A DNA stretch of 64,000 nucleotides from Alphaproteobacteria bacterium. Its GTDB lineage: Bacteria > Pseudomonadota > Alphaproteobacteria > GCA-2731375. The position numbers were made by a program, and so were the translations under genes. The notes beneath the pieces were generated by a model. The model made no database searches. It was not told where the DNA came from and worked only from the letters and a program-made list of their open reading frames with translations. Every line of letters begins with the position of its first letter. Within the stretch, counting starts at the first letter, position 1. The stretch spans positions 139,964 to 203,963 of the forward strand of contig CBDDDJ010000003.1 in assembly GCA_965226475.1 (NCBI GenBank), given 5' to 3'. Shown here in pieces: positions 7,194-35,835 of the stretch.

Positions 7194-7330
7194 CCCCCTC
7201 CTCTGACACCCGACCAGCAAATCATTTCTGGATGAACACCGCAACCCCGGTGTCGCTAACACACGATATGACCGCCGTAGGTACCATGTGATCTGTCCGG
7301 TTTAGAACGTCGCCTTCGAGGAGGGCGGCG

Positions 7331-8512
7331 ATGAAGCGGGCCGAGGTGTTGCAAGGACTACGGCAGATGAAGTTCGAGGAGATTCTGGAGCGCGCGAAGC
7401 GGCGGCGACTGAGCCAGGCGGAGGCGGCGTCGATCCTGGGGATGAGCGAGCGAACGTTCCGGCGCTGGCGGGGTCGCTTTGAGGCGGAAGGCGCGGAGGG
7501 TCTGTATGACCGCCGGCTGGGCAAGGTCTCGGGGCACCGGGTGCCGGTGGACACGGTGATGGAGGTTCTGGAGTTGTTCGACACGCGCTACTGGGACTTC
7601 ACGGCCAAGCACTTCCACGAGAAGCTGCTCGATGAGCACGGCTTCACGCGGAGCTACAACTGGGTCCGCCTGACGCTCCAGGCCCACGGGCGCAAACGTC
7701 CGGCACCGCGGCGAGGCGCGCACCGGCGCAAGCGGCCGCGCCGCGCCCTGCCCGCCATGATGCTGCACCAGGACGGCTCGACCCACCAATGGGTTCCCGG
7801 GCAGTGGTGGGACCTGATCGTCACCATGGATGACGCAACCAGCGAGATCTACTCGGCCTTCTTCGTCGACGAAGAGGGGACCATGAGCAGCTTCCGGGCC
7901 CTGGGCGAGGTGATCGAGGTCCGGGGGCTGTTCTGCTCGCTCTACGCCGACCGGGCCTCGCACTACTGGCACACGCCCGAGGCCGGCGGCAAGGTGGACA
8001 AGAACAACCCGACCCAGGTGGGCCGAGCCCTGGGCCAGCTGGGCATCGAACTGATCCCGGCCTACTCCCCCGAGGCCCGGGGGCGCTCGGAGCGCATGTT
8101 CGCGACATTGCAGAATCGCCTGCCGCAGGAACTGCGCTTGGCCGCCATCACCACGATGGCCGAGGCCAACGCGTTCCTGCGCGAGATTTATCTGCCCCGC
8201 CACAACGCCCGTTTCGCGGTGCCGGCCGAAGCCGAGGGCTCGGCCTTTGTCCCCTTCACCGGATCGCTCGACGACATCCTGTGCATCCAGGAGGACCGGA
8301 TCGTCGGCAACGACAACACGGTGCGCTACAAGCGGCTGGTGCTGCAGATCCCGGAGGATCGCCACCGCCGCCATTACGTCAAGGCATCGGTGCGGGTCCA
8401 CGAATACTCCGGCGGCACCCTGGCGGTCTTCCACGGCCCGCGCCGGCTGGCCCGATATCAGGCCGACGGCACCGTCCTCGACGAAACCAAGAACAGCAGA
8501 GCGGCCGCGTGA
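7331..8512 (+). CDS. ISNCY-family DDE transposase (N-terminal HTH + integrase core)
   Basis: 393 aa (SERTFRRWR HTH; MMLHQDGSTHQW ... LIVTMDDATSEIY ... SPEARGRSERMF). Identical to the protein at 46560-47741. Confidence 0.8.
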   Translation: MKRAEVLQGLRQMKFEEILERAKRRRLSQAEAASILGMSERTFRRWRGRFEAEGAEGLYDRRLGKVSGHRVPVDTVMEVLELFDTRYWDFTAKHFHEKLLDEHGFTRSYNWVRLTLQAHGRKRPAPRRGAHRRKRPRRALPAMMLHQDGSTHQWVPGQWWDLIVTMDDATSEIYSAFFVDEEGTMSSFRALGEVIEVRGLFCSLYADRASHYWHTPEAGGKVDKNNPTQVGRALGQLGIELIPAYSPEARGRSERMFATLQNRLPQELRLAAITTMAEANAFLREIYLPRHNARFAVPAEAEGSAFVPFTGSLDDILCIQEDRIVGNDNTVRYKRLVLQIPEDRHRRHYVKASVRVHEYSGGTLAVFHGPRRLARYQADGTVLDETKNSRAAA

Positions 8513-8534
8513 ACCGCTTCGACGCGCGCCCGGC

Positions 8535-8584
8535 CTGTGGATAAGTGGACAACCCGCCACGGCGGGTTCCCCACTTATCCACAG
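8535..8584. repeat. Perfect-arm palindrome/hairpin inside the IS right end (CTGTGGATAAGTGG ... CCACTTATCCACAG)
   Basis: 14-bp inverted arms seen directly just downstream of the transposase stop. Repeated in the other IS copies (about 9985-10035 diverged, 45131-45180, 46480-46529). Confidence 0.8.
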
Positions 8585-8672
8585 GCCCAACAACCACAAC
8601 AGAAGCGGTCAATTCATATGGTACATAAAGCGGTCAATTCGAAATGTTCTCGACACCCCGGTTGGGCCATCG

Positions 8673-10107
8673 TGTCGCTAACACACGATATGACGGTCTA
8701 TGTAAGCGGCCGCGTGAACCGGTCTATGTAACAGATGATCTGTCCGGTTTTAGATTTCCTCCAAATCTGGAGGAATCGGATGCGCCGGACGGATGCAGTT
8801 GCAGGGACTGAGATTGATGAAGTTCGAGGATGTCTAGGGACGCTGTTATCGGGGTGATTTGAGCCAGGCCGAGGCCTCGGAGATCCTGGGCATGTCGGAG
8901 CGGACGTTCCGGCGCTGGCGGGAGCGCTATGAGGCCGAGGGTGCCGAGGGTTTGTACGACCGGCGCCTTGGGCGGGTCTCGGCGCGCCGCGCGCCGGTGG
9001 ACGAGGTGATGCGGGTGCTGGAGCTGTTCGAGACGCGCTACCCGGACTTCACGGCCAAGCACTTCCACGAGAAGCTGGTCTGCGAGCATGGCTTCGGGCT
9101 GAGCTACAACTGGCTTCGCCTGAGCTTGCAGGCGCCGGCAAGATCAAGCCGGCGCCCCGGCGCGGGGCGCACCGCCGGAAGCGGCCGCGCCGACCGGTGG
9201 TGGGGATGATGCCGCACCAGGACGCCTCGAGCCACGAGTGGGTTGCGGGCCAGTGGTGGGACCTGATCGTGACCATGGACGATGCGACATCGGAGGTCTA
9301 TTCGGGCTTCTTCGTTGCCGAGGAGGGCACGATGAGCACGTTCCGCGGGCTCGGCGAGGTGATCGCCGAAAACGGGCTGTTCTGCTCGCTCTACGCCGAT
9401 CGGGCCTCGCACTACTGGCACACGCCCGAGGCAGGCGGCGGTGTGGACAAGGACAACCCGACCCAGGTCGGCCGGGCCTTGGCGCAGCTCGGCATCGAGT
9501 TGATCGCGGCCTATTCGCCGCAGGCCCGGGGCCGCTCGGAGCGCATGTTCGGGACCTTGCAGAAGCGCCTGCCCCAGGAGCTGCGCCTCGCCGGGATCGC
9601 CACCATGGCCGAGGCCAATCGCTTTCTCGAGGAGCTCTTCTGGCCGGCGCACAACGCCCGCTTCGCCCGCCCGGCCGCGGACACCGGCTCGGCCTTCGTG
9701 GCTTTTGCCGGCACGCTCGAGGACATCCTCTGCGCCCAGGAGGACCGCGTCGTCGCGGGCGACAACACCTTGCGCGACAAGCGCCGCACGCTGCAGATCC
9801 CGGCCGATCGCCACCGCCACCACTACGTCAAGGCGCAGGTCCGGGTGCACGAATATCCCGACGGCCACCTGGCCGTCCTCCACGGACCCAGGTGTCTGGC
9901 GCGCTACCGCGCCGACGGCGAAACCATCGACGATGACAGGCTCCAGGCCGCGTGACCCGCTTCGACGCGACCGACCCCGGGCCTGTGGATAAGTGGACAG
10001 CTCGGCAAAGCAGCCGACCTGACCACTTCCCCACAGGCCCAACCACCACAACAGAAGCGGTCAATTCATATGGTACATAAAGCGGTCAACTCAGTTTGTT
10101 ATCGACA
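8673..10107 (+). mobile_element. Diverged ISNCY-like element, copy 2, in tandem 17 bp after copy 1
   Basis: Same terminal architecture (TGTCGCTAACAC ... ATCGACA) and the same internal hairpin, but with divergent sequence. Confidence 0.7.
8780..9955 (+). pseudogene. ISNCY-like transposase, disrupted (early stop and frameshift)
   Basis: The ATG at 8780 reads into TAG/TGA within 25 codons. Homology resumes in ORFs 8859-9209 and 9197-9955 in different frames. Confidence 0.7.
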
Positions 10108-10183
10108 ATAAAGATGTAGGGCACGACCGGCCTTCGTCCGTCGGCGATCGTGTCCCATGGAATGGTGTAGCTGACGGAGCCTA

Positions 10184-10819
10184 TTGGCGGCCGGACCGTT
10201 CACCTCAGACCCTGACATGAAGAAGAAACCAATGGACAAAGCCAACGCGAAGCGGATGTCGGAGAAAGCTCCCGAGCATGTTGGAGACAACGTGTTCACT
10301 CCGCACAACTTCGACGACGTCGACCTAAGACAATTCCTCCGCACCTACCTTTGGGTCATCTACGTTGCCGGCTTCCGCAACGCGGTCGTGGAGAAACACT
10401 TTGATACCATCAAAGATGCGTTTCACGACTTGGACCTGGACAAAATCGTCGCCGTGACGTCGATAAACGCCGACGCGCTCCCGATCCGTAACCAACGGAA
10501 GGCGGACGCGTTCCTGCGGGGGTGCGAATTAATTCACGCCGAAGGCTGGCAAGCGTTCCAACAGCGACTGAATGTGCGCGGTCAGGCCGCACTCGCAGAG
10601 CTTCCCTGGATGGGCCCCGCGACCAAACAGCTCATGGTGCTAGTCCTTGGCATTGAGGACACGGAAAAGGCCGACATCTGGATCAAGCAGTGCGCCGATG
10701 CTTGTTCCGCGACCGTGGACCAAATAGTCAGATTCCTCAGGCGGGAATACGGACTGACCCGCCAACAGGTGGATAATTACTTGTGGCGATACTGTCGCGA
10801 CAACCAACGGTTGCCATGA
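10184..10819 (+). CDS. Hypothetical protein, putative HhH-GPD-superfamily DNA glycosylase-like (MagIII/Tag-like)
   Basis: 211-aa ORF in a distinctly lower-GC block. Helix-hairpin-helix-like motif (LPWMGPATKQLMVLVLG). The family call is tentative. Confidence 0.4.
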   Translation: MAAGPFTSDPDMKKKPMDKANAKRMSEKAPEHVGDNVFTPHNFDDVDLRQFLRTYLWVIYVAGFRNAVVEKHFDTIKDAFHDLDLDKIVAVTSINADALPIRNQRKADAFLRGCELIHAEGWQAFQQRLNVRGQAALAELPWMGPATKQLMVLVLGIEDTEKADIWIKQCADACSATVDQIVRFLRREYGLTRQQVDNYLWRYCRDNQRLP

Positions 10820-10856
10820 ATGCTTGATCGCTGCGCAGGTGGATAATTACTTGTGG
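10766..10856. repeat. Two 21-bp direct repeats CAGGTGGATAATTACTTGTGG (10766-10786 and 10836-10856)
   Basis: Exact repeat straddling the stop codon of the 211-aa ORF. Confidence 0.8.
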
Positions 10857-10984
10857 TGGCCGGTTGCTCGATCGCACTGATCAACCGGTTGATTTGGTGC
10901 TCAGTCTGACTGTCCGCCTCCAAGTCCGTCGACCGCGCGCCGCCGGCTTCACCGCCCTCGCCCGCCGGATCGACGCTGTCGGGA

Positions 10985-12033
10985 GCAATAATTTTGGCTC
11001 AATTCGTGAATTGTATGCGTCACCTTGTTACGGCGGCGGCGAGGCAGGCTCGGTCATTGGCGCCGGGGGCGAGGCCGACGAGGTGGAACCAGCTCAGGTA
11101 GTTGTCCAGATAGCGGGTGGCGATGCCGCGGCGGGGACGCAGGAAGTCCTTCAACCGGCTGTGGCGGCTGTTCACCGTCTGCACATGCAGATCGCCCCGA
11201 ACCCGTTCCCCCATCGAGCGGTTGAGTGCTTCGTGGCTCACCCCGAGCGCGGCGGCGCAAGGTGGATAGCTCGCGCCACCGTCGGAGACCAGCAGGGCGT
11301 CCTTCGCGACCACCGGGTCGAGAGCAGCCGTGAGCGCCGCCGCGTCGACCCTGGGCAGCACCGCGCTCACCGTCGGCCCGCTCCGGTCCGCCGCCATGAG
11401 AACCGGCACCTGCTCGCGCGAGAGGCCGCGCTTCTTCGCCTTGCCGCCCCGCCGCCGTGCCTTGCGTCCCAGCCCGCGCGCGCCCTTCCGGCTCTCCAGG
11501 ACGTAGGTCTCGTCCGCTTCCACGATCCCCTTGAGCACCTCCGAATCGCTCCGCGCCGCCGCCAGAAACCGGTGACGCCAGCGGAACGCCGTGCTCACCG
11601 CCACGTCGCAGCGCGCCGCCGAGGCCTTCACCGTCTCCCCCTCCGCCAGCGACGCCCCGAACGACAGCCAGCGTTCCTTGTGGTGCAGGCCCGACAGCGG
11701 CGTACCGGTCAGCGCGTTGAAGGTCCTGCCGCAGCCCTTGCACTGGTAGCGCCGCAGACCCCGCGCCATACCGCGCGAAACCGCCCCTTCGCTCGCGCAG
11801 TGCGGACAGCGCCGGGCCTCGTCCACACCAAGCTCGATCGCGGCCTTCGATGCCTCGCCTTCGCTCCGGCCCAACAGCACCGCGAGCGCCTCGTGCCGCT
11901 GCACGCGCGTCAGCCCGCGCGCCGCCGAAAGCCACACCTGGAAACCCTTGCCGTCCATGACCCAACCTCCTGACATTCCGGGCATTCTATCACAAATGCA
12001 TACGTTTCACGAATTGACCCATAATTTTAGTGC
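10985..12033 (-). mobile_element. IS1595-family insertion sequence
   Basis: Imperfect terminal IRs (core TCAATTCGTGAA.nGTATGC) at about 10985-11025 and 11995-12033 flank a 312-aa transposase. Confidence 0.7.
11020..11958 (-). CDS. IS1595-family transposase (N-terminal zinc ribbon + DDE domain)
   Basis: CPHCAS ... YQCKGCGRTF zinc ribbon, then an ISXO2-like DDE region (EADETYV ... LVSDGGASY). AGGAGG RBS before the ATG at 11958. Confidence 0.8.
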   Translation of the reverse strand: MDGKGFQVWLSAARGLTRVQRHEALAVLLGRSEGEASKAAIELGVDEARRCPHCASEGAVSRGMARGLRRYQCKGCGRTFNALTGTPLSGLHHKERWLSFGASLAEGETVKASAARCDVAVSTAFRWRHRFLAAARSDSEVLKGIVEADETYVLESRKGARGLGRKARRRGGKAKKRGLSREQVPVLMAADRSGPTVSAVLPRVDAAALTAALDPVVAKDALLVSDGGASYPPCAAALGVSHEALNRSMGERVRGDLHVQTVNSRHSRLKDFLRPRRGIATRYLDNYLSWFHLVGLAPGANDRACLAAAVTR

Positions 12034-12270
12034 TGATGCGGTTTCCGTGGACTTCGTCCTGACTTGGCCCAGTCGAGGTTCGAGGTGTCGGTGCGGCGGA
12101 CGGATGGTTTGCTCCCGTTCATTTCAACTGAACTCGTGGACACCTCCATCAACGGGCAAGTCATGCAACAAGGCCGGGCCGGTATTCGGAGAGATGCCGC
12201 ATGACGGCAGTCAGCACGACCTTAAGCGAGGGAATGCCGAGGGCTGTAGCCCGCTTCATTGGGCGAAAAC

Positions 12271-12474
12271 TCAGTCACCCGTTGGCTCGATCCCCCTTTC
12301 TTTGTCGAGGAGACGCTCGCACTGGGTAAGGACACGGAGAGCCACATCCATCGCCAGGTAGTCACCGCTACTCCGCAGTTCCTCAACGCGATCCTGGGCA
12401 ATACCTATGGCCTCTCGGCCGTAATGCTGGACCAACTCCCGTGCTGAGCGTCCGATCTCAGTCTTTGTAATCAC
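12271..12474 (-). CDS. Hypothetical small protein (67 aa)
   Basis: ORF in low-GC IS-scrap DNA with no recognisable domain. Weak support. Confidence 0.25.
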   Translation of the reverse strand: MITKTEIGRSARELVQHYGREAIGIAQDRVEELRSSGDYLAMDVALRVLTQCERLLDKERGIEPTGD

Positions 12475-12571
12475 CTGCGTTCAGCCTCGATGTCTTTTCG
12501 CAAAATATCTACACGGTGGCGAATTGCGGCAACCTGGACGCATCGGCTCAATCGAGACGCCGACCACGAAA

Positions 12572-12856
12572 TTAACCCGGCGCGCCACATCCTCGCCAAA
12601 CTTCATCCATTATCTCCTGTTGCTGCGTCAGGTCGAGAATATGCTGTTCGTACGTGGCACCGAGATCTGTCATGAGATAGTTGGTTAGGCGAGCCTTCGA
12701 TCCCGCCAATGGTTGCGTCCGGCGTGCCGCCGACTGATAGGCGCCGGCCGGTGTCGAGATCGACCGGCCGGCAAAGACCTCGTGAAAGTCAAAGCGCATG
12801 GGCTGCATCAACGAGATCGTTTCCTCGCTCACCCGTGTGTTCGTGCCGGAATACAT
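12572..12856 (-). CDS. Hypothetical small protein (94 aa)
   Basis: ORF in lower-GC DNA adjacent to the previous one, with no recognisable domain. Weak support. Confidence 0.2.
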   Translation of the reverse strand: MYSGTNTRVSEETISLMQPMRFDFHEVFAGRSISTPAGAYQSAARRTQPLAGSKARLTNYLMTDLGATYEQHILDLTQQQEIMDEVWRGCGAPG

Positions 12857-13186
12857 TTGCCACGACCGTATCCTCGACCGATGGCTGCTTGCGCCAACGA
12901 ATCAGGAGCAAATCCGCACGTGCTACGCCCCTTCTGCACCGGGCATCCGAAAGCTTGCTGGCGCCTGCCACGCGGTTTCCATGGATTGGCGCCTTCGCGC
13001 GGCCAACCAGCACGAACAGTCCGACACGCAAAATTGGGGACTTATGTGCTTTGATCTCGCAGGCCGATAGTCAGGTCGCGGCGATTGCCCGCTCATGCGG
13101 CATGGCGGTGGCAACGCGCAACGTCCGAGTGATCCTCTCCCATTGGATTGGTCCATCCTTAGGTTTGGGAATGGGGAGGATCAACG

Positions 13187-13330
13187 ATGGCAAGGAAGCG
13201 CTACAAGCCGGAGGAGATCGTCAGCCTGCTGCGGCAGGCGGAGGTTCTGCATGGCCAGGGCATGTCGATGGCGGACGCGATCGGGCAACTGGGGATCAGT
13301 GAGGTCACATTCTATCTCTATGGATGGCTC
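13187..13330 (+). pseudogene. IS3-family OrfA N-terminal fragment
   Basis: MARKRYKPEEIVSLLRQAEV ... MADAIGQLGISEVTFY matches the IS3-family OrfA HTH, then degenerates. Confidence 0.6.
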
Positions 13331-13543
13331 TCCCGTACGAGGGATGTTGATCTGAGTGACGTGGGTCGGTTGCAAACATCTATCCGGCATCACCCATAGT
13401 GGGGTGCCCAAATGGGGAATCCGCACGCACCCGCCTCTACAGCTGATAGGCCTCAGAGGCCTCGATAATAGTCAGGCTCGTGGCGCGCCGGTCCGACCTG
13501 TGCAGCTCATTTCGTTATCGTCTCGCAACCTCGTGGCGGGCCC

Positions 13544-13735
13544 TCAGCCAGCGGCGCGGTAGGCTTCGCCGCTCCGAAGCACGGCCCAGATGATCCGTGC
13601 GTTCTTGTTGGCGACGGCCACCGTGGCCCGGTTGAAGCCGCGCCGCCGGTGAAGTTTGTTGACCCAGGCGTTGAAGGGATCCGTCTTTGCTGAGGCCGTT
13701 CGAACGACGGACCTGGCGCCATGCACCAGCAGGGA
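13544..13735 (-). pseudogene. IS110-family transposase C-terminal remnant
   Basis: Minus-strand translation ends ... FNRATVAVANKNARIIWAVLRSGEAYRAAG, the typical IS110 C-terminus. No N-terminal part is present. Confidence 0.55.
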
Positions 13736-13737
13736 TC

Positions 13738-14474
13738 CTATCGCCCGGGGAGGGGGTTGAGGCCCACCCGCGTCTGCCGAAGGTAGATAGACCCGATGGT
13801 GCCGAAATTCATGACCGTGAACCCGCAACCGACGAGAAAGGCTTGGGAATAGCTGCCCGTGAGGTCGAAAATGTGGCCTCCGAGCCACCCCCCGAGTGCC
13901 ATGCCGAGCAACTCGAACATGTAGAAGGTGGCGATGCGCCAGCCGGCCTGGCTGGCCGGGAAGAGCAGCCGGATGATCAGGGGGTAGCACGGCATGATGC
14001 CCGCGAATCCCAGGCCGAACAGCAATGCGGCGACGTACAGGGCAGGCGGGCTGGTTACGATAGAAAAGACCACGAGCATGATGGCCTGACAGGCCGAACC
14101 GATGAGCAGCGTTCGCACCCCGCCGATGCGGTCGGCCAGCATGCCATAGAGAATCCGCGAGACGAAAGCCGCGGCGAACAATACGGTCAATAGTTCGGCG
14201 GCGCGTGCTCGTGGCAAACCCAGGTCGGTGCCGTGGCTGACGAGATGAACCATCGGTATCGCCATCGCCGCGCAGCAACCGATGGTCGCCAGGCACAACA
14301 GGCCCTGCACGGCATTTGCGGGCAGATCGAGAACCCGTCCAAGCACGGCGTGGCCCTCGCGGGCCCGGCCCGGGGGCGTGATGGGCGGCTTGGTGCGCAG
14401 CAGCATGGCTAGCGGCACCATGGTGCAAAGCGCGAAAACGCCGAATATCAGATAGGTCTCGCGCCAACCGTAGG
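13738..14474 (-). pseudogene. MFS transporter, C-terminal half only (truncated by IS21 insertion)
   Basis: Multi-TM MFS-like sequence whose reading frame runs straight into the IS21 terminus at 14475. The N-terminal half is not found on the other side of the IS. Confidence 0.65.
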
Positions 14475-14574
14475 TGTGTGCGGCGGTGACAAATTAGACC
14501 ACGGAAGCGGCGGGATTTGCCCGGCTGCGGGCGGAGTAAAACTCTGCCACCTGTAGCCTTCGATCCTTTTCGGG

Positions 14575-16853: not shown

Positions 16854-17038
16854 GCGGCATCCGCTTGCCCCCGTGGGCCCACAGGCCCCTCCCACGCGCG
16901 CCGCGGCCTTTGCCTGCTGAGGGGCAGTCCACGCCGCGCGTGGGTCCCTCCCGTGGACTACGGGGACAAGCTCCTCACCGAACCAAAGTGGCCCACTTTT
17001 GCTCCGCCACATGGCCGGGTTTTACTCCGCCGTTGACA

Positions 17039-20588: not shown

Positions 20589-20652
20589 TTTGGTCCGCCG
20601 CAGCCGGATCGACCGGCCGCTTCAGTGGGGGATTATTGCGCCGCCGTTCTCA

Positions 20653-21029: not shown

Positions 21030-21222
21030 ACCGCCTTTCTGAATGTTTTACAATCAGGAGTTTACGCCAGTTCTCCAATTTTCCACCAACCTTGCGACAC
21101 CACCCAAAAACACACTGAATCGTTTTGTGCTAGGGAATAGCGGACGGTTTACGTGGAGTGCGCCCCTGGACCCGGACAGGTGATGTATAAGGAGTTGACC
21201 GGGGACGCCGGGCTTTCAGAGG

Positions 21223-21582: not shown

Positions 21583-22030
21583 TGGGCCTGCCACGCTCGA
21601 CCTATTACGACGCGCCGGTGGCCACGGCCGACGAGGCCGAGATCGTCGCCCGCATCGAGGCGATCTGTGAGGAGTTCGAAGCCTACGGCTATCGCCGTGT
21701 CGGTGCCGCGCTGCGCCACCAAGGCATCATCGTCAACAGCAAGAAGGTCCGCCGTCTGATGCGCGAACACGACCTGCAGCCCAGGCGCCGCAAGCGCTTC
21801 GTCGCCACCACTGACAACGATCATGACGGGCCGATCTTCCCCAACCTTGCCAAGGACGTCACGGCTGACGGGCCGAACCAGCTCTGGGTCGCCGACATCA
21901 CCTACGTCGCGATCGCTGTCGGCTTCGTCTATGTCGCGGTCATCCTCGATGCCGGGTCGCGCCGGGTCGTGGGCTATGCGATCAGCCGATCGATCGATGC
22001 CCGCTTCTGCCAGGCGCTCGGTATATTTGA
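21582..22030 (+). pseudogene. IS3-family OrfB, 3'-truncated
   Basis: Integrase-core N-terminal part (NQLWVADITYV). No DDE C-terminus follows. Confidence 0.65.
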
Positions 22031-23038: not shown

Positions 23039-23138
23039 TGTGTGCGGCGGTGACAAATTAGACCACGGAAGCGGCGGGATTTGCCCGGCTGCGGGCGGAG
23101 TAAAACTCTGCCACCTGTAGCCTTCGATCCTTTTCGGG

Positions 23139-24653
23139 ATGGAAGGTGGGAGGATGTATACCGTGGACCTTTATTTACGCGTTCGGCTGGCGTGCCATGT
23201 TGATGGGCTGAGTCAGCGAGAGGCGGCGAGTCGGTTTGGCATGGCGCGAGAGACGGTGAGGAAGATGCTCGGGCACTCGGAGCCGCCTGGCTACCGCCGC
23301 CGCCAGCCACCGAAGCGCCCGAAGCTGGACCCCTTCAGGGATATCATTGACCGTATTCTGGAAGAGGACCGAACGGTTCACTGCAAGCAGCGCCACACGG
23401 CGAAGCGGATATTCGAGCGTCTTCGCGACGAGCATGGCTTTGCGGGCAAACAGACCATCGTCAAGGATTACGTCCGGGAACGGCGCCGTCGCCAGCGTGA
23501 GATGTTCGTGCCGCTGGCGCACCCTCCGGGTCACGCTCAGGCGGACTTTGGCGAGGCGGATGCGATCATCGCCGGCGTCAAGCGGCGGGCGCATTTTTTC
23601 GCCATGGACCTTCCCCACGGCGATGCCTGCTTCGTTGCGGCCTACCCGGCGGCGGCGACGGAGGCCTGGCTGGACGGCCACAACGGGGCCTTCGCCTTCT
23701 TCGGCGGCATTCCCCAATCGATTCTCCACGACAATGACAAGTGCCTGGTGTCGCGCATCCTGCCGGACGGCACGCGGCAACGAACGCGAGCGTTCAGCGG
23801 GCTTCAATCCCATTATCTGTTCCAGGATCGATATGGCCGCCCCGGCAAGGGCAATGATAAGGGCAAGGTGGAGGGGCTGGTCGGTTACGCCCGCCGGAAC
23901 TTCATGGTTCCCATCCCCCGGTTTGCGAGCTGGGACGCCTTCAACGCTCACCTGGAACATCAATGTCGGAGACGGGAAAGCGACGTCTTGCGCGGCCATC
24001 GCGAGACCATCGGCGAGCGGTTCGGATGCGACCGGGAGAAGCTGATGGAATTGCCGCCGGCGCCTTTCGAGGCCTGCGACAAGGAGGGCACGCGGGTCAA
24101 TTCGCTCTCCCTGGTGCGCTATCGGGGCAACGACTACTCGGTGCCCGTCGCCTACGGTCACCAAGAGGTCTGGGTCCGTGGCTACGTGCACGAGGTGGTC
24201 ATCGGCTGCGCCGCCGAGGTCATCGCCCGGCACCCACGCTCTTACGAACGAGAGGACCTGATCTTCGAGCCGATCCACTATCTGGCCTTGCGGGAGCGGA
24301 AGATCGGTGCCCTCGATCAAGCCGCCCCGCTGGCCGGTTGGAAGCTGCCCGAGGCGTACGCCAACCTGCGCCGCTTGCTTGAAGCCCGCATGGGCAAGGC
24401 CGGCAAGCGGGAGTACGTGCAAGTGCTCCGTCTTCTGGAGACCTTTGCCCTTGAGGAGGTGCACGGTGCCATCCGCGATGCCCCGCGGTTAGGCGCCATC
24501 GGCTATGATGCGGTCAAGCACCTGGTGCTGTGTCGCGTCGAGCGTCGACCCCCCCGGCTCGACTTGAACGTTTATCCCTATCTGCCGCGGGCCCAGGTGA
24601 CCACCACATCCGCCGCCAGCCACATGAGCCTGCTGGGCGGAGCGGCGCCGTGA
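23139..24653 (+). CDS. istA: IS21 transposase IstA
   Basis: 504 aa, identical to copy A except L13 for P13. Confidence 0.9.
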   Translation: MEGGRMYTVDLYLRVRLACHVDGLSQREAASRFGMARETVRKMLGHSEPPGYRRRQPPKRPKLDPFRDIIDRILEEDRTVHCKQRHTAKRIFERLRDEHGFAGKQTIVKDYVRERRRRQREMFVPLAHPPGHAQADFGEADAIIAGVKRRAHFFAMDLPHGDACFVAAYPAAATEAWLDGHNGAFAFFGGIPQSILHDNDKCLVSRILPDGTRQRTRAFSGLQSHYLFQDRYGRPGKGNDKGKVEGLVGYARRNFMVPIPRFASWDAFNAHLEHQCRRRESDVLRGHRETIGERFGCDREKLMELPPAPFEACDKEGTRVNSLSLVRYRGNDYSVPVAYGHQEVWVRGYVHEVVIGCAAEVIARHPRSYEREDLIFEPIHYLALRERKIGALDQAAPLAGWKLPEAYANLRRLLEARMGKAGKREYVQVLRLLETFALEEVHGAIRDAPRLGAIGYDAVKHLVLCRVERRPPRLDLNVYPYLPRAQVTTTSAASHMSLLGGAAP

Positions 24654-25417
24654 GCGACACGCCGCAGGTGTTGCTGGCCCATCACCTGAAGGCCCTCAAG
24701 CTGCCGACCTTCCTCAGGGAGTACGACAAGCTGGCTCGCCAGTGTGCCAGCGAGGGCGCCGACCACGTGCGCTACCTGCTCCGCCTGGCCGAGCTGGAAC
24801 TGATCGACCGCGAGCGCCGCATGGTCGAGCGGCGAATCAGGCAAGCGAAGTTCCCGACCGTCAAGAGCTTGGACAGCTTTGACTTCAAAGCGATCGCCTC
24901 GCTCAACAAGGCGCTGGTCCTCGAGCTGGCACGATGCGAGTACATCGAGCGCCGGGAGAATGTGATCGCTCTGGGCAATTCCGGCACCGGCAAGAGTCAC
25001 ATTGCGCTCGGCCTCGGCCTTGCCGCCTGCCAGAAGGGCCTGTCGGTCGGCTTTACCACCGCCGCCGCCCTGGTCCACGAGCTCATGGAGGCGCGCGATG
25101 ACAGACAGCTGCTGAGGTTCCAGAAGAAGCTCGCCAACCTCAAGCTCCTCATCATCGACGAGCTGGGTTTCGTGCCGCTCTCCAAGACCGGCGCCGAGTT
25201 GCTGTTCGAGGTGTTCAGCCAGCGCTACGAGCGTGGCTCGATCCTGGTGACCTCCAACCTGCCATTCGACGAGTGGACGGAGGTTTTCGGCTCAGAACGC
25301 CTGACGGGGGCGTTGCTGGACCGCCTGACCCACCACGTCCATATCCTGGAAATGAACGGCGAAAGCTTCCGCCTCAAGCAGAGCCGAAGAAAACAGAAAC
25401 CCGCAAAAAGCGCCTGA
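24650..25417 (+). CDS. istB: IS21 helper ATPase IstB
   Basis: Identical to copy A. Confidence 0.85.
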   Translation: MSDTPQVLLAHHLKALKLPTFLREYDKLARQCASEGADHVRYLLRLAELELIDRERRMVERRIRQAKFPTVKSLDSFDFKAIASLNKALVLELARCEYIERRENVIALGNSGTGKSHIALGLGLAACQKGLSVGFTTAAALVHELMEARDDRQLLRFQKKLANLKLLIIDELGFVPLSKTGAELLFEVFSQRYERGSILVTSNLPFDEWTEVFGSERLTGALLDRLTHHVHILEMNGESFRLKQSRRKQKPAKSA

Positions 25418-25602
25418 GCGGCATCCGCTTGCCCCCGTGGGCCCACAGGCCCCTCCCACGCGCGCCGCGGCCTTTGCCTGCTGAGGGGCAGTCCACGCCG
25501 CGCGTGGGTCCCTCCCGTGGACTACGGGGACAAGCTCCTCACCGAACCAAAGTGGCCCACTTTTGCTCCGCCACATGGCCGGGTTTTACTCCGCCGTTGA
25601 CA

Positions 25603-26164
25603 CCTCGAACAGCAACTCGGCGCCGGTCTTGGAGAGCGGCACGAAACCCAGCTCGTCGATGATGAGGAGCTTGAGGTTGGCGAGCTTCTTCTGGAACCTC
25701 AGCAGCTGTCTGTCATCGCGCGCCTCCATGAGCTCGTGGACCAGGGCGGCGGCGGTGGTAAAGCCGACCGACAGGCCCTTCTGGCAGGCGGCAAGGCCGA
25801 GGCCGAGCGCAATGTGACTCTTGCCGGTGCCGGAATTGCCCAGAGCGATCACATTCTCCCGGCGCTCGATGTACTCGCATCGTGCCAGCTCGAGGACCAG
25901 CGCCTTGTTGAGCGAGGCGATCGCTTTGAAGTCAAAGCTGTCCAAGCTCTTGACGGTCGGGAACTTCGCTTGCCTGATTCGCCGCTCGACCATGCGGCGC
26001 TCGCGGTCGATCAGTTCCAGCTCGGCCAGGCGGAGCAGGTAGCGCACGTGGTCGGCGCCCTCGCTGGCACACTGGCGAGCCAGCTTGTCGTACTCCCTGA
26101 GGAAGGTCGGCAGCTTGAGGGCCTTCAGGTGATGGGCCAGCAACACCTGCGGCGTGTCGCTCAC
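25603..26164 (-). pseudogene. istB: IstB truncated at about codon 187 (copy C); the 232-aa ORF 25586-26284 is the same truncated istB with an artefactual 45-aa N-terminal extension
   Basis: Identical to IstB up to LLFEV, then reads into the terminus of copy B (STAE stop). Confidence 0.75.
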
Positions 26165-27675
26165 GGCGCCGCTCCGCCCAGCAGGCTCATGTGGCTGGCG
26201 GCGGATGTGGTGGTCACCTGGGCCCGCGGCAGATAGGGATAAACGTTCAAGTCGAGCCGGGGGGGTCGACGCTCGACGCGACACAGCACCAGGTGCTTGA
26301 CCGCATCATAGCCGATGGCGCCTAACCGCGGGGCATCGCGGATGGCACCGTGCACCTCCTCAAGGGCAAAGGTCTCCAGAAGACGGAGCACTTGCACGTA
26401 CTCCCGCTTGCCGGCCTTGCCCATGCGGGCTTCAAGCAAGCGGCGCAGGTTGGCGTACGCCTCGGGCAGCTTCCAACCGGCCAGCGGGGCGGCTTGATCG
26501 AGGGCACCGATCTTCCGCTCCCGCAAGGCCAGATAGTGGATCGGCTCGAAGATCAGGTCCTCTCGTTCGTAAGAGCGTGGGTGCCGGGCGATGACCTCGG
26601 CGGCGCAGCCGATGACCACCTCGTGCACGTAGCCACGGACCCAGACCTCTTGGTGACCGTAGGCGACGGGCACCGAGTAGTCGTTGCCCCGATAGCGCAC
26701 CAGGGAGAGCGAATTGACCCGCGTGCCCTCCTTGTCGCAGGCCTCGAAAGGCGCCGGCGGCAATTCCATCAGCTTCTCCCGGTCGCATCCGAACCGCTCG
26801 CCGATGGTCTCGCGATGGCCGCGCAAGACGTCGCTTTCCCGTCTCCGACATTGATGTTCCAGGTGAGCGTTGAAGGCGTCCCAGCTCGCAAACCGGGGGA
26901 TGGGAACCATGAAGTTCCGGCGGGCGTAACCGACCAGCCCCTCCACCTTGCCCTTATCATTGCCCTTGCCGGGGCGGCCATATCGATCCTGGAACAGATA
27001 ATGGGATTGAAGCCCGCTGAACGCTCGCGTTCGTTGCCGCGTGCCGTCCGGCAGGATGCGCGACACCAGGCACTTGTCATTGTCGTGGAGAATCGATTGG
27101 GGAATGCCGCCGAAGAAGGCGAAGGCCCCGTTGTGGCCGTCCAGCCAGGCCTCCGTCGCCGCCGCCGGGTAGGCCGCAACGAAGCAGGCATCGCCGTGGG
27201 GAAGGTCCATGGCGAAAAAATGCGCCCGCCGCTTGACGCCGGCGATGATCGCATCCGCCTCGCCAAAGTCCGCCTGAGCGTGACCCGGAGGGTGCGCCAG
27301 CGGCACGAACATCTCACGCTGGCGACGGCGCCGTTCCCGGACGTAATCCTTGACGATGGTCTGTTTGCCCGCAAAGCCATGCTCGTCGCGAAGACGCTCG
27401 AATATCCGCTTCGCCGTGTGGCGCTGCTTGCAGTGAACCGTTCGGTCCTCTTCCAGAATACGGTCAATGATATCCCTGAAGGGGTCCAGCTTCGGGCGCT
27501 TCGGTGGCTGGCGGCGGCGGTAGCCAGGCGGCTCCGAGTGCCCGAGCATCTTCCTCACCGTCTCTCGCGCCATGCCAAACCGACTCGCCGCCTCTCGCTG
27601 ACTCAGCCCATCAACATGGCACGCCAGCCGAACGCGTAAATAAAGGTCCACGGTATACATCCTCCCACCTTCCAT
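26161..27675 (-). CDS. istA: IS21 transposase IstA
   Basis: 504 aa, identical to copy B. Confidence 0.9.
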   Translation of the reverse strand: MEGGRMYTVDLYLRVRLACHVDGLSQREAASRFGMARETVRKMLGHSEPPGYRRRQPPKRPKLDPFRDIIDRILEEDRTVHCKQRHTAKRIFERLRDEHGFAGKQTIVKDYVRERRRRQREMFVPLAHPPGHAQADFGEADAIIAGVKRRAHFFAMDLPHGDACFVAAYPAAATEAWLDGHNGAFAFFGGIPQSILHDNDKCLVSRILPDGTRQRTRAFSGLQSHYLFQDRYGRPGKGNDKGKVEGLVGYARRNFMVPIPRFASWDAFNAHLEHQCRRRESDVLRGHRETIGERFGCDREKLMELPPAPFEACDKEGTRVNSLSLVRYRGNDYSVPVAYGHQEVWVRGYVHEVVIGCAAEVIARHPRSYEREDLIFEPIHYLALRERKIGALDQAAPLAGWKLPEAYANLRRLLEARMGKAGKREYVQVLRLLETFALEEVHGAIRDAPRLGAIGYDAVKHLVLCRVERRPPRLDLNVYPYLPRAQVTTTSAASHMSLLGGAAP

Positions 27676-27760
27676 CCCGAAAAGGATCGAAGGCTACAGG
27701 TGGCAGAGTTTTACTCCGCCCGCAGCCGGGCAAATCCCGCCGCTTCCGTGGTCTAATTTG

Positions 27761-28246
27761 TCACCGCCGCACACATATCAGTCGTTGCGCCCGGCGCGGA
27801 TGAATACCTAGCTGCCGCAGCATCGGCAGCCAGTCGCCGTGCCGCACCTGGCGCTTGGCATTCGCCAAGAGTAGCCCTAGCCGTTCAACGTCGCCAGTAT
27901 GATCGGCCTCAATGATCTTCGCAACCACCTCAGGGAACGAATGCGCTTCACGCTTCAGGTCGCCGATCAACCGGCTCGCTTCGTCGAAGGTGACGGGCCG
28001 TGCTGTCCTGGCGATCAGTGCCGCAACCGTTCGTTTCTGTCGTGGCGTTGCTTCGTCCATGGGGTGCCAGTTGGTGAAGGTCGTGAGTGCGGCGGACCGG
28101 TCCCTTTCCCTCGGAAATGCGACACTTGCGACGGCATTCCCGAGGGTTGGGCTTTTCGCCAGCTGTGCCAGCCGGAGCCAGGCCATCGCTTGGGCGGGCT
28201 GCGCAGCGGCCTTGTGGCCCTGCCATCGCTCGCAGCCTCGGAGCAC
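27761..28246 (-). CDS. Hypothetical protein of the integrative element (161 aa)
   Basis: ORF with plausible codon usage. Its 3' end reads into the IS21-C terminus, so the C-terminus may be truncated. Confidence 0.4.
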   Translation of the reverse strand: MLRGCERWQGHKAAAQPAQAMAWLRLAQLAKSPTLGNAVASVAFPRERDRSAALTTFTNWHPMDEATPRQKRTVAALIARTARPVTFDEASRLIGDLKREAHSFPEVVAKIIEADHTGDVERLGLLLANAKRQVRHGDWLPMLRQLGIHPRRAQRLICVRR

Positions 28247-28493
28247 ATCGCCGACTGGCCGTCAGCGCCTTCGCCGGTCTCCGCCGCCGTCGATCAAATC
28301 CCAGGTGCTCCCCGGTCTCCTCCAACGGCTCAGCCTCGGGCCGCGGTCTTGAAGGTCCCTCCCCGGTACCGCGAAATTGCCGTTGCGCCCCGGGTGCCAA
28401 TCGCTAAAATGCCGGTCTGCATTGACTGGCGTTCTAACGCAAAGCGTCCAACGCAACGGCGGGCGGCTCTATCGGGGCCGCCCGTTCCGCCTT

Positions 28494-28694
28494 TTAGGCC
28501 GCCGCCGCTTCGCCCGTGGCGCGTGGGCGGCCAGACAGCCATTGCTCAATTTCGGATGCCGGCCAGCGCACGGCGCGTGGGCCGACCTTGATGGGCTCGG
28601 GGAATTCGCCGCAGCGCATCAATCGATAGATGGTGGAGCGAGCGATTCCGCAGCGGGCCTCGACTTCCTCGCGGCGCATCAGCCGGTCGATCAT
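28494..28694 (-). CDS. alpA: AlpA-family phage/ICE transcriptional regulator (excisionase-like HTH)
   Basis: 66 aa (RREEVEARCGIARSTIYRLMRCGEFPEPIKVGPRAVRWPASEIEQW). Confidence 0.8.
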   Translation of the reverse strand: MIDRLMRREEVEARCGIARSTIYRLMRCGEFPEPIKVGPRAVRWPASEIEQWLSGRPRATGEAAAA

Positions 28695-28788
28695 GGCATC
28701 CTCCCGTTGATCTGCCCAGAGGATGCCGCAAACGCCCGGAAGCGCTAAGCAGAATACCGGGCAAAAACGCGCCCCGGTTTTTCCCGTG

Positions 28789-29253
28789 TCAGTCTATGCC
28801 GGCAGTGCGCAGGACGCCGCGCAACGTGTCCTTGTCGATGTCGGCCGCTTGGGCGAGTAACCCAACTGCTTCATGGCGCTGGTAGCCCTGCCGCTTCAGG
28901 CTTCCGAACATGTCGACGATCGCTTTGTCCCGCCATGCCGTGCTCGGGCGGCCGGTCGCCTTGGGCGGGGCCCCAGCGGCCAGTGCTTCCTCCGCGGCGG
29001 TCCGCAACGCCTCCCGCGCGGCCGGCTTTAGCGTCTCCCGCTCAGCGGCGAGGCGGATCAGCTGGTGATATGCAGCCTCCCGGCCTCGGGTGGGCCAGCG
29101 GGACTCGTGCACGATCCCGGAGAGCCACCGGATCATCCACGCTTGTTGATCGGGATCATCGGGCCAAAAGAACGAATCACCAGGGCGCTCGTATGATCGA
29201 CGGGCGATGTCTAGTCCCTCGCGGAGCCGCTCGGCCATGTTGCGATCACGCAT
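28789..29253 (-). CDS. Hypothetical protein (154 aa), overlaps the integrase 3' end by 8 bp
   Basis: ORF co-directional with int and alpA, with no recognisable domain. Confidence 0.45.
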   Translation of the reverse strand: MRDRNMAERLREGLDIARRSYERPGDSFFWPDDPDQQAWMIRWLSGIVHESRWPTRGREAAYHQLIRLAAERETLKPAAREALRTAAEEALAAGAPPKATGRPSTAWRDKAIVDMFGSLKRQGYQRHEAVGLLAQAADIDKDTLRGVLRTAGID

Positions 29254-30427
29254 GAAGCTTCACCACCTCGGCGCCGGCGGTCCCGGTCACGAACCGCGCC
29301 CATTCCTCCATCAGCGCGCGACGGCGCTCGAACAGGTCGGACCGCGCATAGGCCTGCTCGACGGCGCTGCCGACCGCATGGGCAAGGGCCAGCTCCATGA
29401 CGGAATGTGGTGCGGCGGTGGTTTCCGCCGCCCAATCCCGGAATGCGCTTCGGAATCCGTGGGCCGTCGCCCGGTCGGCGAGCCCACAATCGCGCAGGAT
29501 CTTAGTCAAAGCCATGTCGCTCAATGGACGGCCGTGCTTGCGAGGCGACGGGAAGATCAGGTCATCATCGCCCCGTAGTGGCGCGGCTTCATGCAGCGCG
29601 GCCACGGCCGCATCGCTCAAAGGGACGCGGTGCTCGACGCCGCCTTTTATGCGCTCCGCCGGGATGCGCCACTCGCGCGCCTCAAGGTCGATTTCCGCCC
29701 ATGTCGCGCCGCGCGCCTCGCCCGACCGGGCGGCGGTCAGAACGAGGAAGCGCAGGCACGCCTTCGCGGCCATGCTTGCCGGCGATGCTTCGACCGTTTC
29801 GAGCGCGGCCGGAACCTCAGCATAGGGCAGGGCGCGGAAATGTGCCTTGACGCGCGGCATGGGCGGAAGCGCGCCGTCGATCGCTTCGCCCGCGACGTTG
29901 CCCCCGACATAGCCATGAGCCTGCCCCCATTTCAGGACGGTGCGGATACGCTGGCGAACGCGCCGGGCGGTTTCCGGTTTCGCGGCCCAGATCGGCGTCA
30001 GAATCCCCAGCACGTCCCGCCGCTCGATACGGTCGAGGGGCATCTTGCCGATGGTCGGGAAGGCATAGGTGCGCAGGGTGTTGATCCATTGCGCTGTATG
30101 CTTGCCGTTCCGCCAGCGGCCGAGATTTAGGGCATGCACCCTTTCCGCCGCCTCGGCGAAGGTCGGCATCTTCGCCCGGCGCTTTTCGGCCAGGGGGTCG
30201 CGCCCTTCCGCCACCGCCAGCCGGTGCGCGTCCGCAAGCTGGCGAGCCTTGGCGAGCGTCACGGCCGGATAGCCGCCGAGGCCGATATCGCGGCGGCGGC
30301 CGTCGATCACGATCCGCAAGATCCAGCCTTTCGAGCCGCCCTTCGCGATGCGCAGATACAGGCCGCGCCCGTCGTTGTGCATGCCCGATTCGGAGAGTGC
30401 TTTCGCCTTCGCTGCCGTGAGCGCCAT
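29246..30427 (-). CDS. int: Tyrosine site-specific integrase, P4-type (N-terminal DUF4102-like arm-binding + phage_integrase catalytic domain)
   Basis: 393 aa with the catalytic region (HGFRSAFRDWAAE ... LAHAVGSAVEQAYARSD). The gene start faces the 3' end of tRNA-Ser. Confidence 0.85.
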   Translation of the reverse strand: MALTAAKAKALSESGMHNDGRGLYLRIAKGGSKGWILRIVIDGRRRDIGLGGYPAVTLAKARQLADAHRLAVAEGRDPLAEKRRAKMPTFAEAAERVHALNLGRWRNGKHTAQWINTLRTYAFPTIGKMPLDRIERRDVLGILTPIWAAKPETARRVRQRIRTVLKWGQAHGYVGGNVAGEAIDGALPPMPRVKAHFRALPYAEVPAALETVEASPASMAAKACLRFLVLTAARSGEARGATWAEIDLEAREWRIPAERIKGGVEHRVPLSDAAVAALHEAAPLRGDDDLIFPSPRKHGRPLSDMALTKILRDCGLADRATAHGFRSAFRDWAAETTAAPHSVMELALAHAVGSAVEQAYARSDLFERRRALMEEWARFVTGTAGAEVVKLHA

Positions 30428-30569
30428 ATCCCTTGCCCATCATTTTGCCCATCACGATAGGCGGGAATATACGGCATTCTGCGGGCACAAGCAACACAAC
30501 GTGAAAACATAAAAGCCTTAGTTGCCAGTGGTTTAGTAGGTATGTTCGGGAACATCAGGGAAGGGGTGG

Positions 30570-30659
30570 TGGCGGAGGGGGTGGGATTCGAACCCACGGT
30601 ACACTCACGTGTACAACGGTTTTCGAGACCGCCCCGTTCGACCACTCCGGCACCCCTCC
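30570..30659 (-). tRNA. tRNA-Ser (anticodon CGA)
   Basis: 90-nt cloverleaf folded by eye: acceptor GGAGGGG/CCCCTCC, anticodon loop CUCGAAA, long variable arm, T-loop GGTTCGAATCC, encoded CCA. Confidence 0.85.
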
Positions 30660-35831: not shown

Positions 35832-35835
35832 CGCG

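Follow-up and report, generated by a model that had tools for sequence, protein, structure and literature searches.

A tRNA-Ser(CGA)-associated interval rich in insertion sequences in an alphaproteobacterium: a probable composite of a satellite-like stub and a chromosomal insertion sequence nest

Does a long run of mobile DNA that starts at a tRNA gene and its integrase represent one genomic island? The question is raised by positions 7251–30659 of the alphaproteobacterial DNA analysed here, a stretch of 64,000 nucleotides hereafter called the window. A sequence-only reading had described this interval as a single 23-kb island anchored at tRNA-Ser(CGA), the cargo of which had been replaced in situ by insertion sequences (ISs). 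We propose, with a probability of roughly 70%, that the interval instead consists of two unrelated pieces joined via a copy of the IS21-family element IS21-A, namely a satellite-like stub at 27776–30569 and an IS nest on the amtB side at 7251–25602.

The tRNA-Ser(CGA) site and the satellite-like stub

The tRNA-Ser(CGA) gene lies at 30570–30659 on the minus strand (ARAGORN; Rfam RF00005, 57.3 bits). Its last 21 nt, CGAATCCCACCCCCTCCGCCA (30570–30590), constitute the attL core as defined by the 23-bp direct repeat of the relative L166, and this core is unchanged in L001, L165, and L168. The 142 bp between the tRNA 3′ end and the start of the integrase gene (30428–30569) have a GC content of 49.3%, compared to 65.9% for the whole window. 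The order read from the letters alone, with tRNA-Ser followed by a low-GC spacer, a P4-type integrase reading away from the tRNA, a hypothetical gene, and AlpA, was found to be correct. In the relatives L001, L165, and L166, synteny with the window extends to the final base of the tRNA and divergence begins directly after it, and in L001 and L165 the integrase is missing at the tRNA-Ser site, homology stopping at the last tRNA base. These three breaks at the tRNA end support the earlier assignment of a standard tRNA-integrated island end, and the right end of the interval is a genuine tRNA-integrated element. The attR had not been located in the window, and the searches agreed: the T-arm 18-mer, with up to three mismatches over the 64-kb window, matched only the tRNA itself; blastn-short returned no match above chance; and, with as many as six mismatches allowed, matches to the 21-nt att core were rarer than in shuffled sequence.

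The stub spans approximately 2.8 kb and comprises int, a gene for a 154-aa protein, alpA, and one cut open reading frame (ORF), all on the minus strand. The intact integrase (29246–30427; 393 aa), transcribed away from the tRNA, contains the Pfam domains Arm-DNA-bind_3 (PF13356, 75 bits), Phage_int_M (PF22022, 90.5 bits), and Phage_integrase (PF00589, 78.8 bits), corresponding to the Arm-DNA-bind_3, SAM-like central, and catalytic domains by which P4-like integrases are recognized. The R...HxxR...Y motifs are readable in its sequence, and its score against NCBIfam PRK09692 is 178 bits, under the cut-off of 434. The 154-aa gene (28789–29253) overlaps the end of int, and its product has no match in Pfam, PHROGs, NCBIfam, or PDB. 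The AlpA-family regulator (28494–28694; 66 aa) scores 68.6 bits with PF05930, for which the gathering score is 21. The ORF at 27776–28246, the 3′ end of which was removed by IS21-A copy 3, is the final trace of the element's own gene content; it gave only a marginal PHROG match (E 7.6e-4) and no relative among viral contigs.

L166 is a conspecific strain whose chromosomal flank is 99–100% identical to the window and which carries an 11.2-kb element at the same tRNA. The att repeat of this element, CGAATCCCAC[C/T]CCCTCCGCCAAT, occurs at approximately 3093–3115 and 14328–14350 in L166 coordinates (22 of 23 positions; E 5e-6). The genes of the element encode an integrase, the 154-aa protein, AlpA, a replication initiator, TerL, HNH, a putative capsid, an S78 protease, and a portal, and the assignments of TerL, HNH, the S78 protease, and the portal are clear. 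The putative capsid has a weak match to PF05065 (E 1e-3), an AlphaFold model with a pLDDT of 45, and more than 1,200 metagenome homologues at E ≤ 1e-20. An IS5 element stands after the replication gene, and the portal gene is the last one, with attR directly after it. Neither tail nor holin genes were found between the att repeats, and terS, the head–tail adaptor, and the connector were not identified in the element. Because of its bounding att repeat, its gene set, and its lack of tail genes, the L166 element looks like a capsid-forming PICI (cfPICI). The same structure was observed, at 99.96% identity, in L167 from an independent sample.

When the window and L166 were compared per 200 nt, identity was 0.99–1.00 in the flank, fell to approximately 59% exactly from the spacer at 30428–30569, and was 0.59–0.81 in int and 0.89–0.94 in the 154-aa gene. 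At the protein level, the integrase is 78% identical to that of L166 over its full length, the 154-aa protein 88%, and AlpA 48%. DNA homology stops at 28716, and the window beyond this position is unalignable to L166. Of a sister allele of the L166 element, the window retains no more than the first 2.8 kb; IS21 cuts the element at 27775, and int and alpA alone are left of the cfPICI core set. The window allele may once have carried a capsid module, though, because of the divergence from L166 past the 154-aa gene, this module is not established as the lost cargo of the window.

The insertion sequence array on the amtB side

The stretch at 7251–27775 contains 14 IS copies or fragments, assigned to IS21 (four), IS3 (four), ISNCY/IS1202 (two), IS30, IS256, IS110, and IS1595, in agreement with the initial count of at least 12 and the description of the region as IS-saturated. 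The IS pieces amount to 17.4 kb of the 23.3 kb of the whole interval (75%), compared to approximately 8% of the other 40.7 kb of the window.

On the amtB side, ISNCY-A1 (7251–8662, plus strand), an intact IS1202-family element with a 393-aa transposase, is located upstream of amtB, 57 bp from its start codon (7193). It was inserted cleanly between 6-bp copies of CCCCGG at 7245–7250 and 8663–8668, a target duplication, and empty sites are present in L170, L171, and L174. ISNCY-B (8680–10107, plus strand), of the same family and 78% identical to ISNCY-A1, has a frameshifted transposase and is an old insertion common to L170 and L175. The ISNCY/IS1202 transposase model (ISNCY_2) scored 349 bits (cut-off, 250), and the inverted repeats measure approximately 50 bp. 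Direct-repeat length is specific to each subgroup of this family, but the direct repeats here are unequal, A1 having 6 bp and the A2–A3 pair 16 bp. A 214-aa ORF of low GC content (58%) at 10175–10816 on the plus strand is not IS-derived and matches no family. The IS1595-family element (10987–12026, minus strand; 321-aa transposase, NCBIfam 166 bits) is 97.8% identical to the IS located after attR in L166, with different flanks. An IS3-family orfA scrap (13187–13399, plus strand), a 70-aa ORF without an NCBIfam match, was assigned by reading the sequence; an exact match to this protein came from ctg125884 alone, a 9.06-Mb metagenome contig 99.4–99.9% identical to the window, whose source sample contains at least five related strains. 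The last 57 codons of an IS110-family transposase (13544–13735, minus strand) and the C-terminal half of an MFS transporter gene (13738–14474, minus strand; PF07690) follow, the latter cut by IS21-A copy 1.

IS21-A copy 1 (14475–17038, plus strand) is complete, and its flanks, the MFS scrap and an IS3-X fragment, are mutually unrelated. This internal fragment of IS3-X (17039–17530, plus strand) abuts IS21-A copy 1 and is 99.8% identical to 21274–21765. Next to it, an rve-core transposase fragment (17531–18074, minus strand), cut by IS21-B, is presumably what was first read as an IS481-like element; the piece itself is there, but its best match is to IS3 (94 bits) rather than IS481 (65 bits), and a complete IS3 in L173 matches it at 95% identity. 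IS21-B (18075–20652, minus strand; 76% identical to IS21-A) retains intact istA and istB, and its exact IstB was found in 433 index blocks, with seven copies in one 249-kb contig. Between IS21-B and IS21-A copy 2 lie an N-terminal IS256-family fragment (20653–21047, minus strand; NCBIfam IS256, 25.7 bits), the equivalent ORF of which carries PF00872 in L187; the 5′ part of IS3-X copy 2, with orfA and the start of orfB (approximately 21150–21985, the start being approximate, plus strand; transpos_IS3, 162 bits); and a frameshifted IS30-family remnant (approximately 21986–23038, minus strand; transpos_IS30, 203 bits), of which L172 has a full copy at 97.7% identity and which IS21-A copy 2 truncates on the 5′ side. 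IS21-A copy 2 (23039–25602, plus strand) is complete. Its right end abuts the truncation point of the inverted copy 3 (25603–27775, minus strand), which retains positions 1–2176 of the 2564-bp IS, so that the left ends of both point outward and that of copy 3 cuts the ORF at 27776–28246.

IstA and IstB scored 283 and 280 bits, respectively, and the IS21 ends, TGT...ACA, are conserved. However, none of the four IS21 copies has a target-site duplication, which in this family would measure 4–8 bp, suggesting that their flanks were joined by recombination rather than by simple insertion. Two complete IS21-A copies in direct orientation around the 6-kb segment at 17039–23038 might also be read as a composite transposon that was relocated in one piece to the side of the stub. 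We regard this as highly improbable: the outer flanks lack a target-site duplication, the cargo is IS debris only, and the unit adjoins the same MFS scrap in ctg125884, and hence has kept its place in both genomes.

Arrangement in relatives and origin of the interval

In ctg125884, window positions 1–23384, with amtB and the IS array, and 23039–38694, with the IS21 pair, the stub, and the tRNA, are 1.055 Mb apart. For this contig, L168 matches the window from 38694 to 23039 at 99.89% and then continues into different low-GC DNA, and L173 and L187 match 1–8640 at 99.9% and 10627–23384 at 99.4%. The two IS21-A copies in ctg125884 are separated by 1,055,267 bp and inverted relative to each other, which is exactly what one inversion requires. 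A single inversion across inverted IS21 copies, or a misjoin at that point, accounts for the difference between the window and ctg125884. Furthermore, 11 related amtB loci carry differing IS sets upstream, with neither a tRNA-Ser nor the window integrase within 8–10 kb, and the amtB-proximal array begins at the ISNCY-B insertion common to strains without a nearby tRNA-Ser. Because the halves are 1.055 Mb apart in ctg125884 and amtB loci bear other arrays with no tRNA-Ser nearby, the IS array is a chromosomal IS nest and not replaced island cargo.

One tRNA-Ser island of approximately 23 kb reaching amtB, with its cargo overwritten in place and its attR destroyed by one IS, would agree with the contiguity of the stretch in the window, with the 75% IS content, and with the conserved sequence at both edges (98–99% identity among relatives up to 7250 and 99–100% from 30600 onward). 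However, the intact sister element is only 11.2 kb long with attR directly after the portal gene, a near-identical contig parts the halves, the oldest member of the array, ISNCY-B, is common to strains without a nearby tRNA-Ser, the IS21 copies lack target-site duplications, and no link to the island was found for the gene scraps of the array, the MFS transporter and the low-GC ORF. An attR much nearer to the integrase, which the sequence-only reading itself had named as evidence against a single island, occurs in L166, though not in the window. We consider one island of this extent quite unlikely.

An assembly misjoin inside the 2.56-kb IS21-A repeat, in either the window or ctg125884, must also be weighed; if it lay in the window, the 23-kb 'island' would be contiguous in no cell. 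The only junction that ctg125884 does not confirm is the path from 17039–23038 through IS21-A copy 2 to copy 3, IS21-A copies 2 and 3 agree at all of 2176 nt (100% identity), with 99.9% identity for copy 1, and the ctg125884 sample is a mixture of related strains. SNPs inside the IS21-A copies were uninformative. However, all other junctions recur in ctg125884 at 99.4–99.9%, and long reads normally span a 2.6-kb repeat. In addition, the two sequences differ by clean IS gains and losses, with ISNCY-B present or absent and an extra IS3 at 10627–10644, indicating that they belong to different strains and that a real inversion is plausible. A misjoin is thus possible but unlikely.

Three things are directly observed, namely how the interval is built up, a whole sister element bounded by its att repeat in L166, and the different order of the segments in the near-identical ctg125884. 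Considering these results, the following course of events may account for the locus. The nest upstream of amtB would have been built by serial IS-into-IS insertion and then by IS21-mediated deletions. IS21-A would have inserted into the satellite just past alpA, and this copy would have undergone homologous recombination with an IS21-A in the opposite orientation that bordered the amtB array 1.055 Mb away, so that the intervening segment was inverted, with IS21-A copy 2 (23039–25602) as the proposed crossover site. The inversion would have set the stub beside the array and left the rest of the element, including attR if extant, approximately 1 Mb away. The stub would then be immobilised, since its intact integrase has no partner site. 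Both the reality and the direction of the inversion are what we infer from the two arrangements, and that of the window could be the older one.

The stub may, on a tentative view that we hold at somewhat less than even odds, be an IS21-immobilised allele of an undescribed alphaproteobacterial family of capsid-forming satellites, approximately 11 kb long and specific to tRNA-Ser(CGA). If so, the window records one IS-mediated megabase inversion that parted a satellite integrase from its attR. A tRNA gene with an integrase and extensive mobile DNA beside it does not in itself delimit a single island. The true element in this case measures approximately 11 kb, and what remains is an IS nest separate from it that IS-mediated rearrangement, or an assembly join, brought alongside. 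In annotation, island boundaries in IS-expanded genomes should be called with relatives for comparison and with long reads in support. The locus is ordinary genome decay in an IS-overrun bacterium, and the best lead lies in the relatives rather than the window, namely a small satellite-like element at tRNA-Ser(CGA), apparently with its own putative capsid, in an uncultured alphaproteobacterial lineage.

Comparison with known systems

The stub resembles islands of the P4/CP4-57 type in the three-domain architecture of its integrase, in the presence of AlpA, in integration at a tRNA 3′ end with the tRNA regenerated, and in the position of int beside attL, reading away. It differs in lacking attR, a primase or replicase, and cargo, and in a PRK09692 score far under the cut-off. 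Furthermore, the classic P4/CP4-57 layout has divergent genes, whereas int, the 154-aa gene, and alpA of the window are co-directional.

A second comparison is with the cfPICIs of de Sousa et al. (2023; PMC10085698). For assignment to the cfPICIs, nine or more of 11 core components are expected: int, regulator, pri-rep, terS, terL, HNH, capsid, protease, portal, adaptor, and connector. The L166 element is similar in its integrase, AlpA, replication initiator, TerL, HNH, head protease, portal, and putative HK97-type capsid, in its small size and att-bounded form, and in being without tail or holin genes. It is dissimilar in having the portal gene last and an IS5 after the replication gene, with TerS, adaptor, and connector not identified; the window, in the genome of an uncultured alphaproteobacterium, retains int and alpA alone.

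Nests of ISs and large inversions are features of IS-expanded genomes such as those of Bordetella pertussis (IS481), Yersinia pestis (IS100), and Shigella. The locus shares with them nested IS families, lost duplications, truncated neighbours, and what may be a megabase inversion between inverted copies of one IS; nothing fundamental sets it apart other than an inversion endpoint that would lie inside a satellite-like element, parting the integrase from attR. As in cryptic prophages and satellite remnants, an integrase and a regulator are kept beside a tRNA while the structural genes are gone, though the loss here apparently came about through IS21 insertion and rearrangement rather than gradual deletion.

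The tRNA-Ser(CGA) site and its integrase stub

The tRNA-Ser(CGA) gene (30570–30659, minus strand) is followed on its 3′ side by a 142-bp spacer of 49% GC, compared with 66% for the window, and by three minus-strand genes transcribed away from the tRNA. These encode an integrase of 393 aa with Arm-DNA-bind_3, Phage_int_M and Phage_integrase domains, a 154-aa protein whose ORF overlaps the end of the integrase gene, and an AlpA regulator of 66 aa (PF05930, 68.6 bits). The last ORF of this stub (27776–30569) runs from 28246 down to 27776, where an IS21 end truncates it. The tRNA, low-GC spacer, integrase, hypothetical gene and AlpA listed in the sequence-only reading were all found, and its view of the right end as a tRNA integration site was borne out by relatives, in which homology or identity breaks directly past the tRNA. 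The 154-aa protein and the truncated ORF were searched against Pfam, PHROGs, NCBIfam and PDB; the former obtained no function and the latter a single, marginal PHROG match (E 7.6e-4). An intact form of the truncated ORF was absent from the viral contigs searched.

The neighbourhood of PhyH and tRNA-Ser(CGA) is common to four related assemblies. At loci L001 and L165 (PhyH 75–80% identical in amino acids), homology to the window ends at the last tRNA base, no integrase lies 3′ of the tRNA, and the downstream DNA also differs between the two. At L163 and L166, the chromosomal flank is 99–100% identical to the window, and identity falls to ~59–81% directly past the tRNA. tRNA-Ser(CGA) is thus a hot spot, where strains of one species carry different alleles. 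A genome scan with the PhyH neighbour gene returned one relative (L001, 75% aa), a metagenome scan returned none above 49%, and exact-protein look-ups of the 385-aa PhyH ORF, the integrase and AmtB matched no record, the start codons being different or the alleles unrecorded. Farther into the flank, a molybdopterin xanthine-dehydrogenase-type gene is intact in the window (31668–34001), and its homologue in L001 carries an IS21-like element (6623–9081). Two tandem Hydantoinase_B paralogues with 74% nucleotide identity adjoin Hydantoinase_A (38617–42271), a layout kept in L163.

The stub integrase is intact, aligning over its full length with the catalytic motifs present. The earlier failure to locate attR in the window was confirmed: searches with the T-arm 18-mer, by blastn-short and with the 21-nt att core gave no match above chance, and there is no second copy of the tRNA 3′ end elsewhere in the 64 kb. 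Given the lack of attR, the stub is predicted to be unable to excise despite its integrase.

The IS array upstream of amtB

Self-BLAST, six-frame reading and NCBIfam together place 14 IS copies or fragments between 7251 and 27775, namely three copies of IS21-A (14475–17038, 23039–25602 and 25603–27775; 99.9–100% identical, one truncated), one of IS21-B (18075–20652; 76% related to IS21-A), two ISNCY (IS1202-family) elements, one IS1595, one frameshifted IS30, four IS3-family pieces, an N-terminal scrap of IS256 and a C-terminal scrap of IS110. IS-derived DNA makes up 17.4 of 23.3 kb (75%) of the interval versus ~8% of the rest of the window. The claimed saturation by at least 12 copies or fragments thus holds, as does the family list apart from its ‘IS481-like’ element, an rve fragment scoring highest against IS3. 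What is left apart from the ISs is half of an MFS transporter gene, two low-GC stretches in which no genes are recognisable, and the integrase stub of 2.8 kb. An ORF of 214 aa and low GC (58%) at 10175–10816, without function in Pfam, PHROGs, NCBIfam or PDB, is intact in the window and interrupted by an IS3 element in the related contig ctg125884.

The left flank (1–7250) is 98–99% identical to many related contigs, all of which differ from the window in the IS set upstream of amtB, and none of which has tRNA-Ser or this integrase within 8–10 kb of amtB. The sequence upstream of amtB is uninterrupted in L171 and L174; in L170 and L175, ISNCY-B occupies the position that it has in the window. 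The window additionally contains ISNCY-A1, which is flanked by a 6-bp duplication and lies 57 bp ahead of the amtB start codon. These comparisons indicate that the array belongs to the amtB region and not to a tRNA island.

ISNCY insertions in several strains hit the same few bases ~57–75 bp upstream of the amtB start (window 7245–8679; L170, L173 and L175), as B in L170 and L175, as A1 plus B in the window and as a single A/B recombinant in ctg125884. This recurrence may point to a preferred target or to an influence on amtB expression. Elsewhere in the window, a minus-strand tandem ISNCY-A pair (45062–47821) comprises A2 (46410–47821) and A3 (45062–46411, without the first ~37 bp of the left end). 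A 16-bp direct repeat, GCCGGGCACGGAAGGC, borders this pair, and A1 (99.8% identical) has only its 6-bp duplication; two lengths for one IS are odd, since direct-repeat length in the IS1202-family literature is subgroup-specific (5–6, 15–17 or 27–28 bp). An inversion between A1 and the inverted A2/A3 pair (45–48 kb) was rejected, as both sites retain matching flanking repeats. A 56-nt palindrome just downstream of the ISNCY transposase gene (8532–8587, 45136–45191 and 46485–46540) has arms containing TGTGGATAA / TTATCCACA, the DnaA-box consensus. Beside the pair, an amidase gene with only its C-terminal half (Pfam positions 233–445) and a short TPR-like ORF (43744–44838) looks like another IS-associated truncation.

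A proposed megabase inversion between IS21-A copies

The decisive comparison was with ctg125884, a 9.06-Mb contig of ENA sample ERZ28763718. Its segment at 6.81–6.83 Mb matches window 1–8640 at 99.9% and 10627–23384 at 99.4%, spanning amtB, the whole array, IS21-A copy 1, the 6 kb at 17039–23038 and the start of copy 2. Its segment at 5.76–5.78 Mb matches window 38694–23039 at 99.89%, spanning core genes, the tRNA, the stub and IS21-A copies 3 and 2. The sequence-only reading had the cargo of one 23-kb tRNA island overwritten in place by ISs. Integration at the tRNA end stands, but replacement of the cargo is not supported: with the array and the stub at separate places in ctg125884, and with ISNCY-B shared by related amtB loci that have no tRNA-Ser within 8–10 kb, overwriting has a low probability.

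The two IS21-A copies in ctg125884 are mutually inverted and 1,055,267 bp apart, and recombination between them yields the window order exactly. Considering these results, we propose the following as the most likely scenario. A satellite-like element of the 11-kb class would have integrated at tRNA-Ser(CGA), IS21-A would then have inserted just past alpA, and inversion between that copy and one on the border of the amtB IS nest would have placed the stub beside the nest and moved the remainder of the element away. No target-site duplication was found at any of the four IS21 copies in either arrangement, which shows that each has been involved in recombination or deletion. Typing of SNPs in the IS21-A copies gave no information on the direction of the inversion, and the window arrangement may be the older of the two. 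One of the two assemblies may instead be misjoined within the 2.56-kb IS21-A repeat; all junctions except the path through copy 2 are confirmed by the independent assembly. Copies 2 and 3 (23039–27775) form a perfect 2176-bp inverted repeat 385 nt apart, also present in ctg125884 (L168), of a potentially unstable and assembly-error-prone type.

Past copy 2 at 5.76–5.78 Mb, ctg125884 has unrelated low-GC DNA (L168 15660–20201) with a methyltransferase-endonuclease gene, perhaps part of the original element's cargo. The gene (L168 17852–19372) fuses an N6/N4 DNA methyltransferase with an Mrr/NA-iREase-like endonuclease domain in DNA of 57.6% GC.

Each fetched 20-kb locus of the lineage contains several transposase genes, and the exact IstB of IS21-B occurs in 433 index blocks, seven times in a single 249-kb contig. 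When plasmids were searched with IS21-A and ISNCY-A, matches were distant or absent. Another IS3-family element starts at 63511–64000, 93% identical to 4835–5324 of L173, a locus in ctg125884, and exits the right end of the window. In a genome-wide IS expansion such as that of this lineage, an IS nest of this density and an IS-mediated inversion of megabase size are both to be expected. The finding correctly describes ordinary decay.

An intact sister element at the same tRNA

In the conspecific strain L166, the tRNA 3′ end (its final 21 nt and 2 nt more, CGAATCCCACCCCCTCCGCCAAT) is repeated 11.2 kb downstream with agreement at 22/23 positions (E 5e-6), the repeat with its variable position being CGAATCCCAC[C/T]CCCTCCGCCA. 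The enclosed DNA carries int, the 154-aa gene and alpA, then a second 154-aa gene, an HTH_36 replication initiator, an IS5 insertion, and TerL with an HNH endonuclease. These are followed by a 430-aa protein whose N-terminal helix is long and whose match to Phage_capsid is weak, by an S78 prohead protease, and by three small genes and a portal; tail and lysis genes are absent. The integrase, 154-aa protein and AlpA are 78%, 88% and 48% identical to those of the window, respectively. The structure is repeated at 99.96% identity in L167, from an independent sample. The DNA homology of the window to L166 stops at 28716, the window retaining no more than the initial 2.8 kb of its own allele, and for that reason we only infer its lost cargo.

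Directly past attR, L166 carries IS1595 and IS256 followed by split ORFs of a serine recombinase (14532–18498), and ISs therefore build up at this tRNA site also outside the element proper. This IS1595 is the same IS as at window 10987–12026, but was rejected as a shared landmark because the flanks differ.

Capsid-forming PICIs are defined by an integrase, an AlpA-type regulator, a replication gene, terL, HNH, capsid, protease and portal, tails and holins being forbidden (PMC10085698). The AlphaFold model of the 430-aa protein (pLDDT 45) was too poor for a fold search. The cfPICI-like satellite family in the relatives is the only moderately new element here; the L166 gene set, with a putative capsid and with TerS, adaptor and connector not identified, appears to fit the published definition of capsid-forming PICIs.
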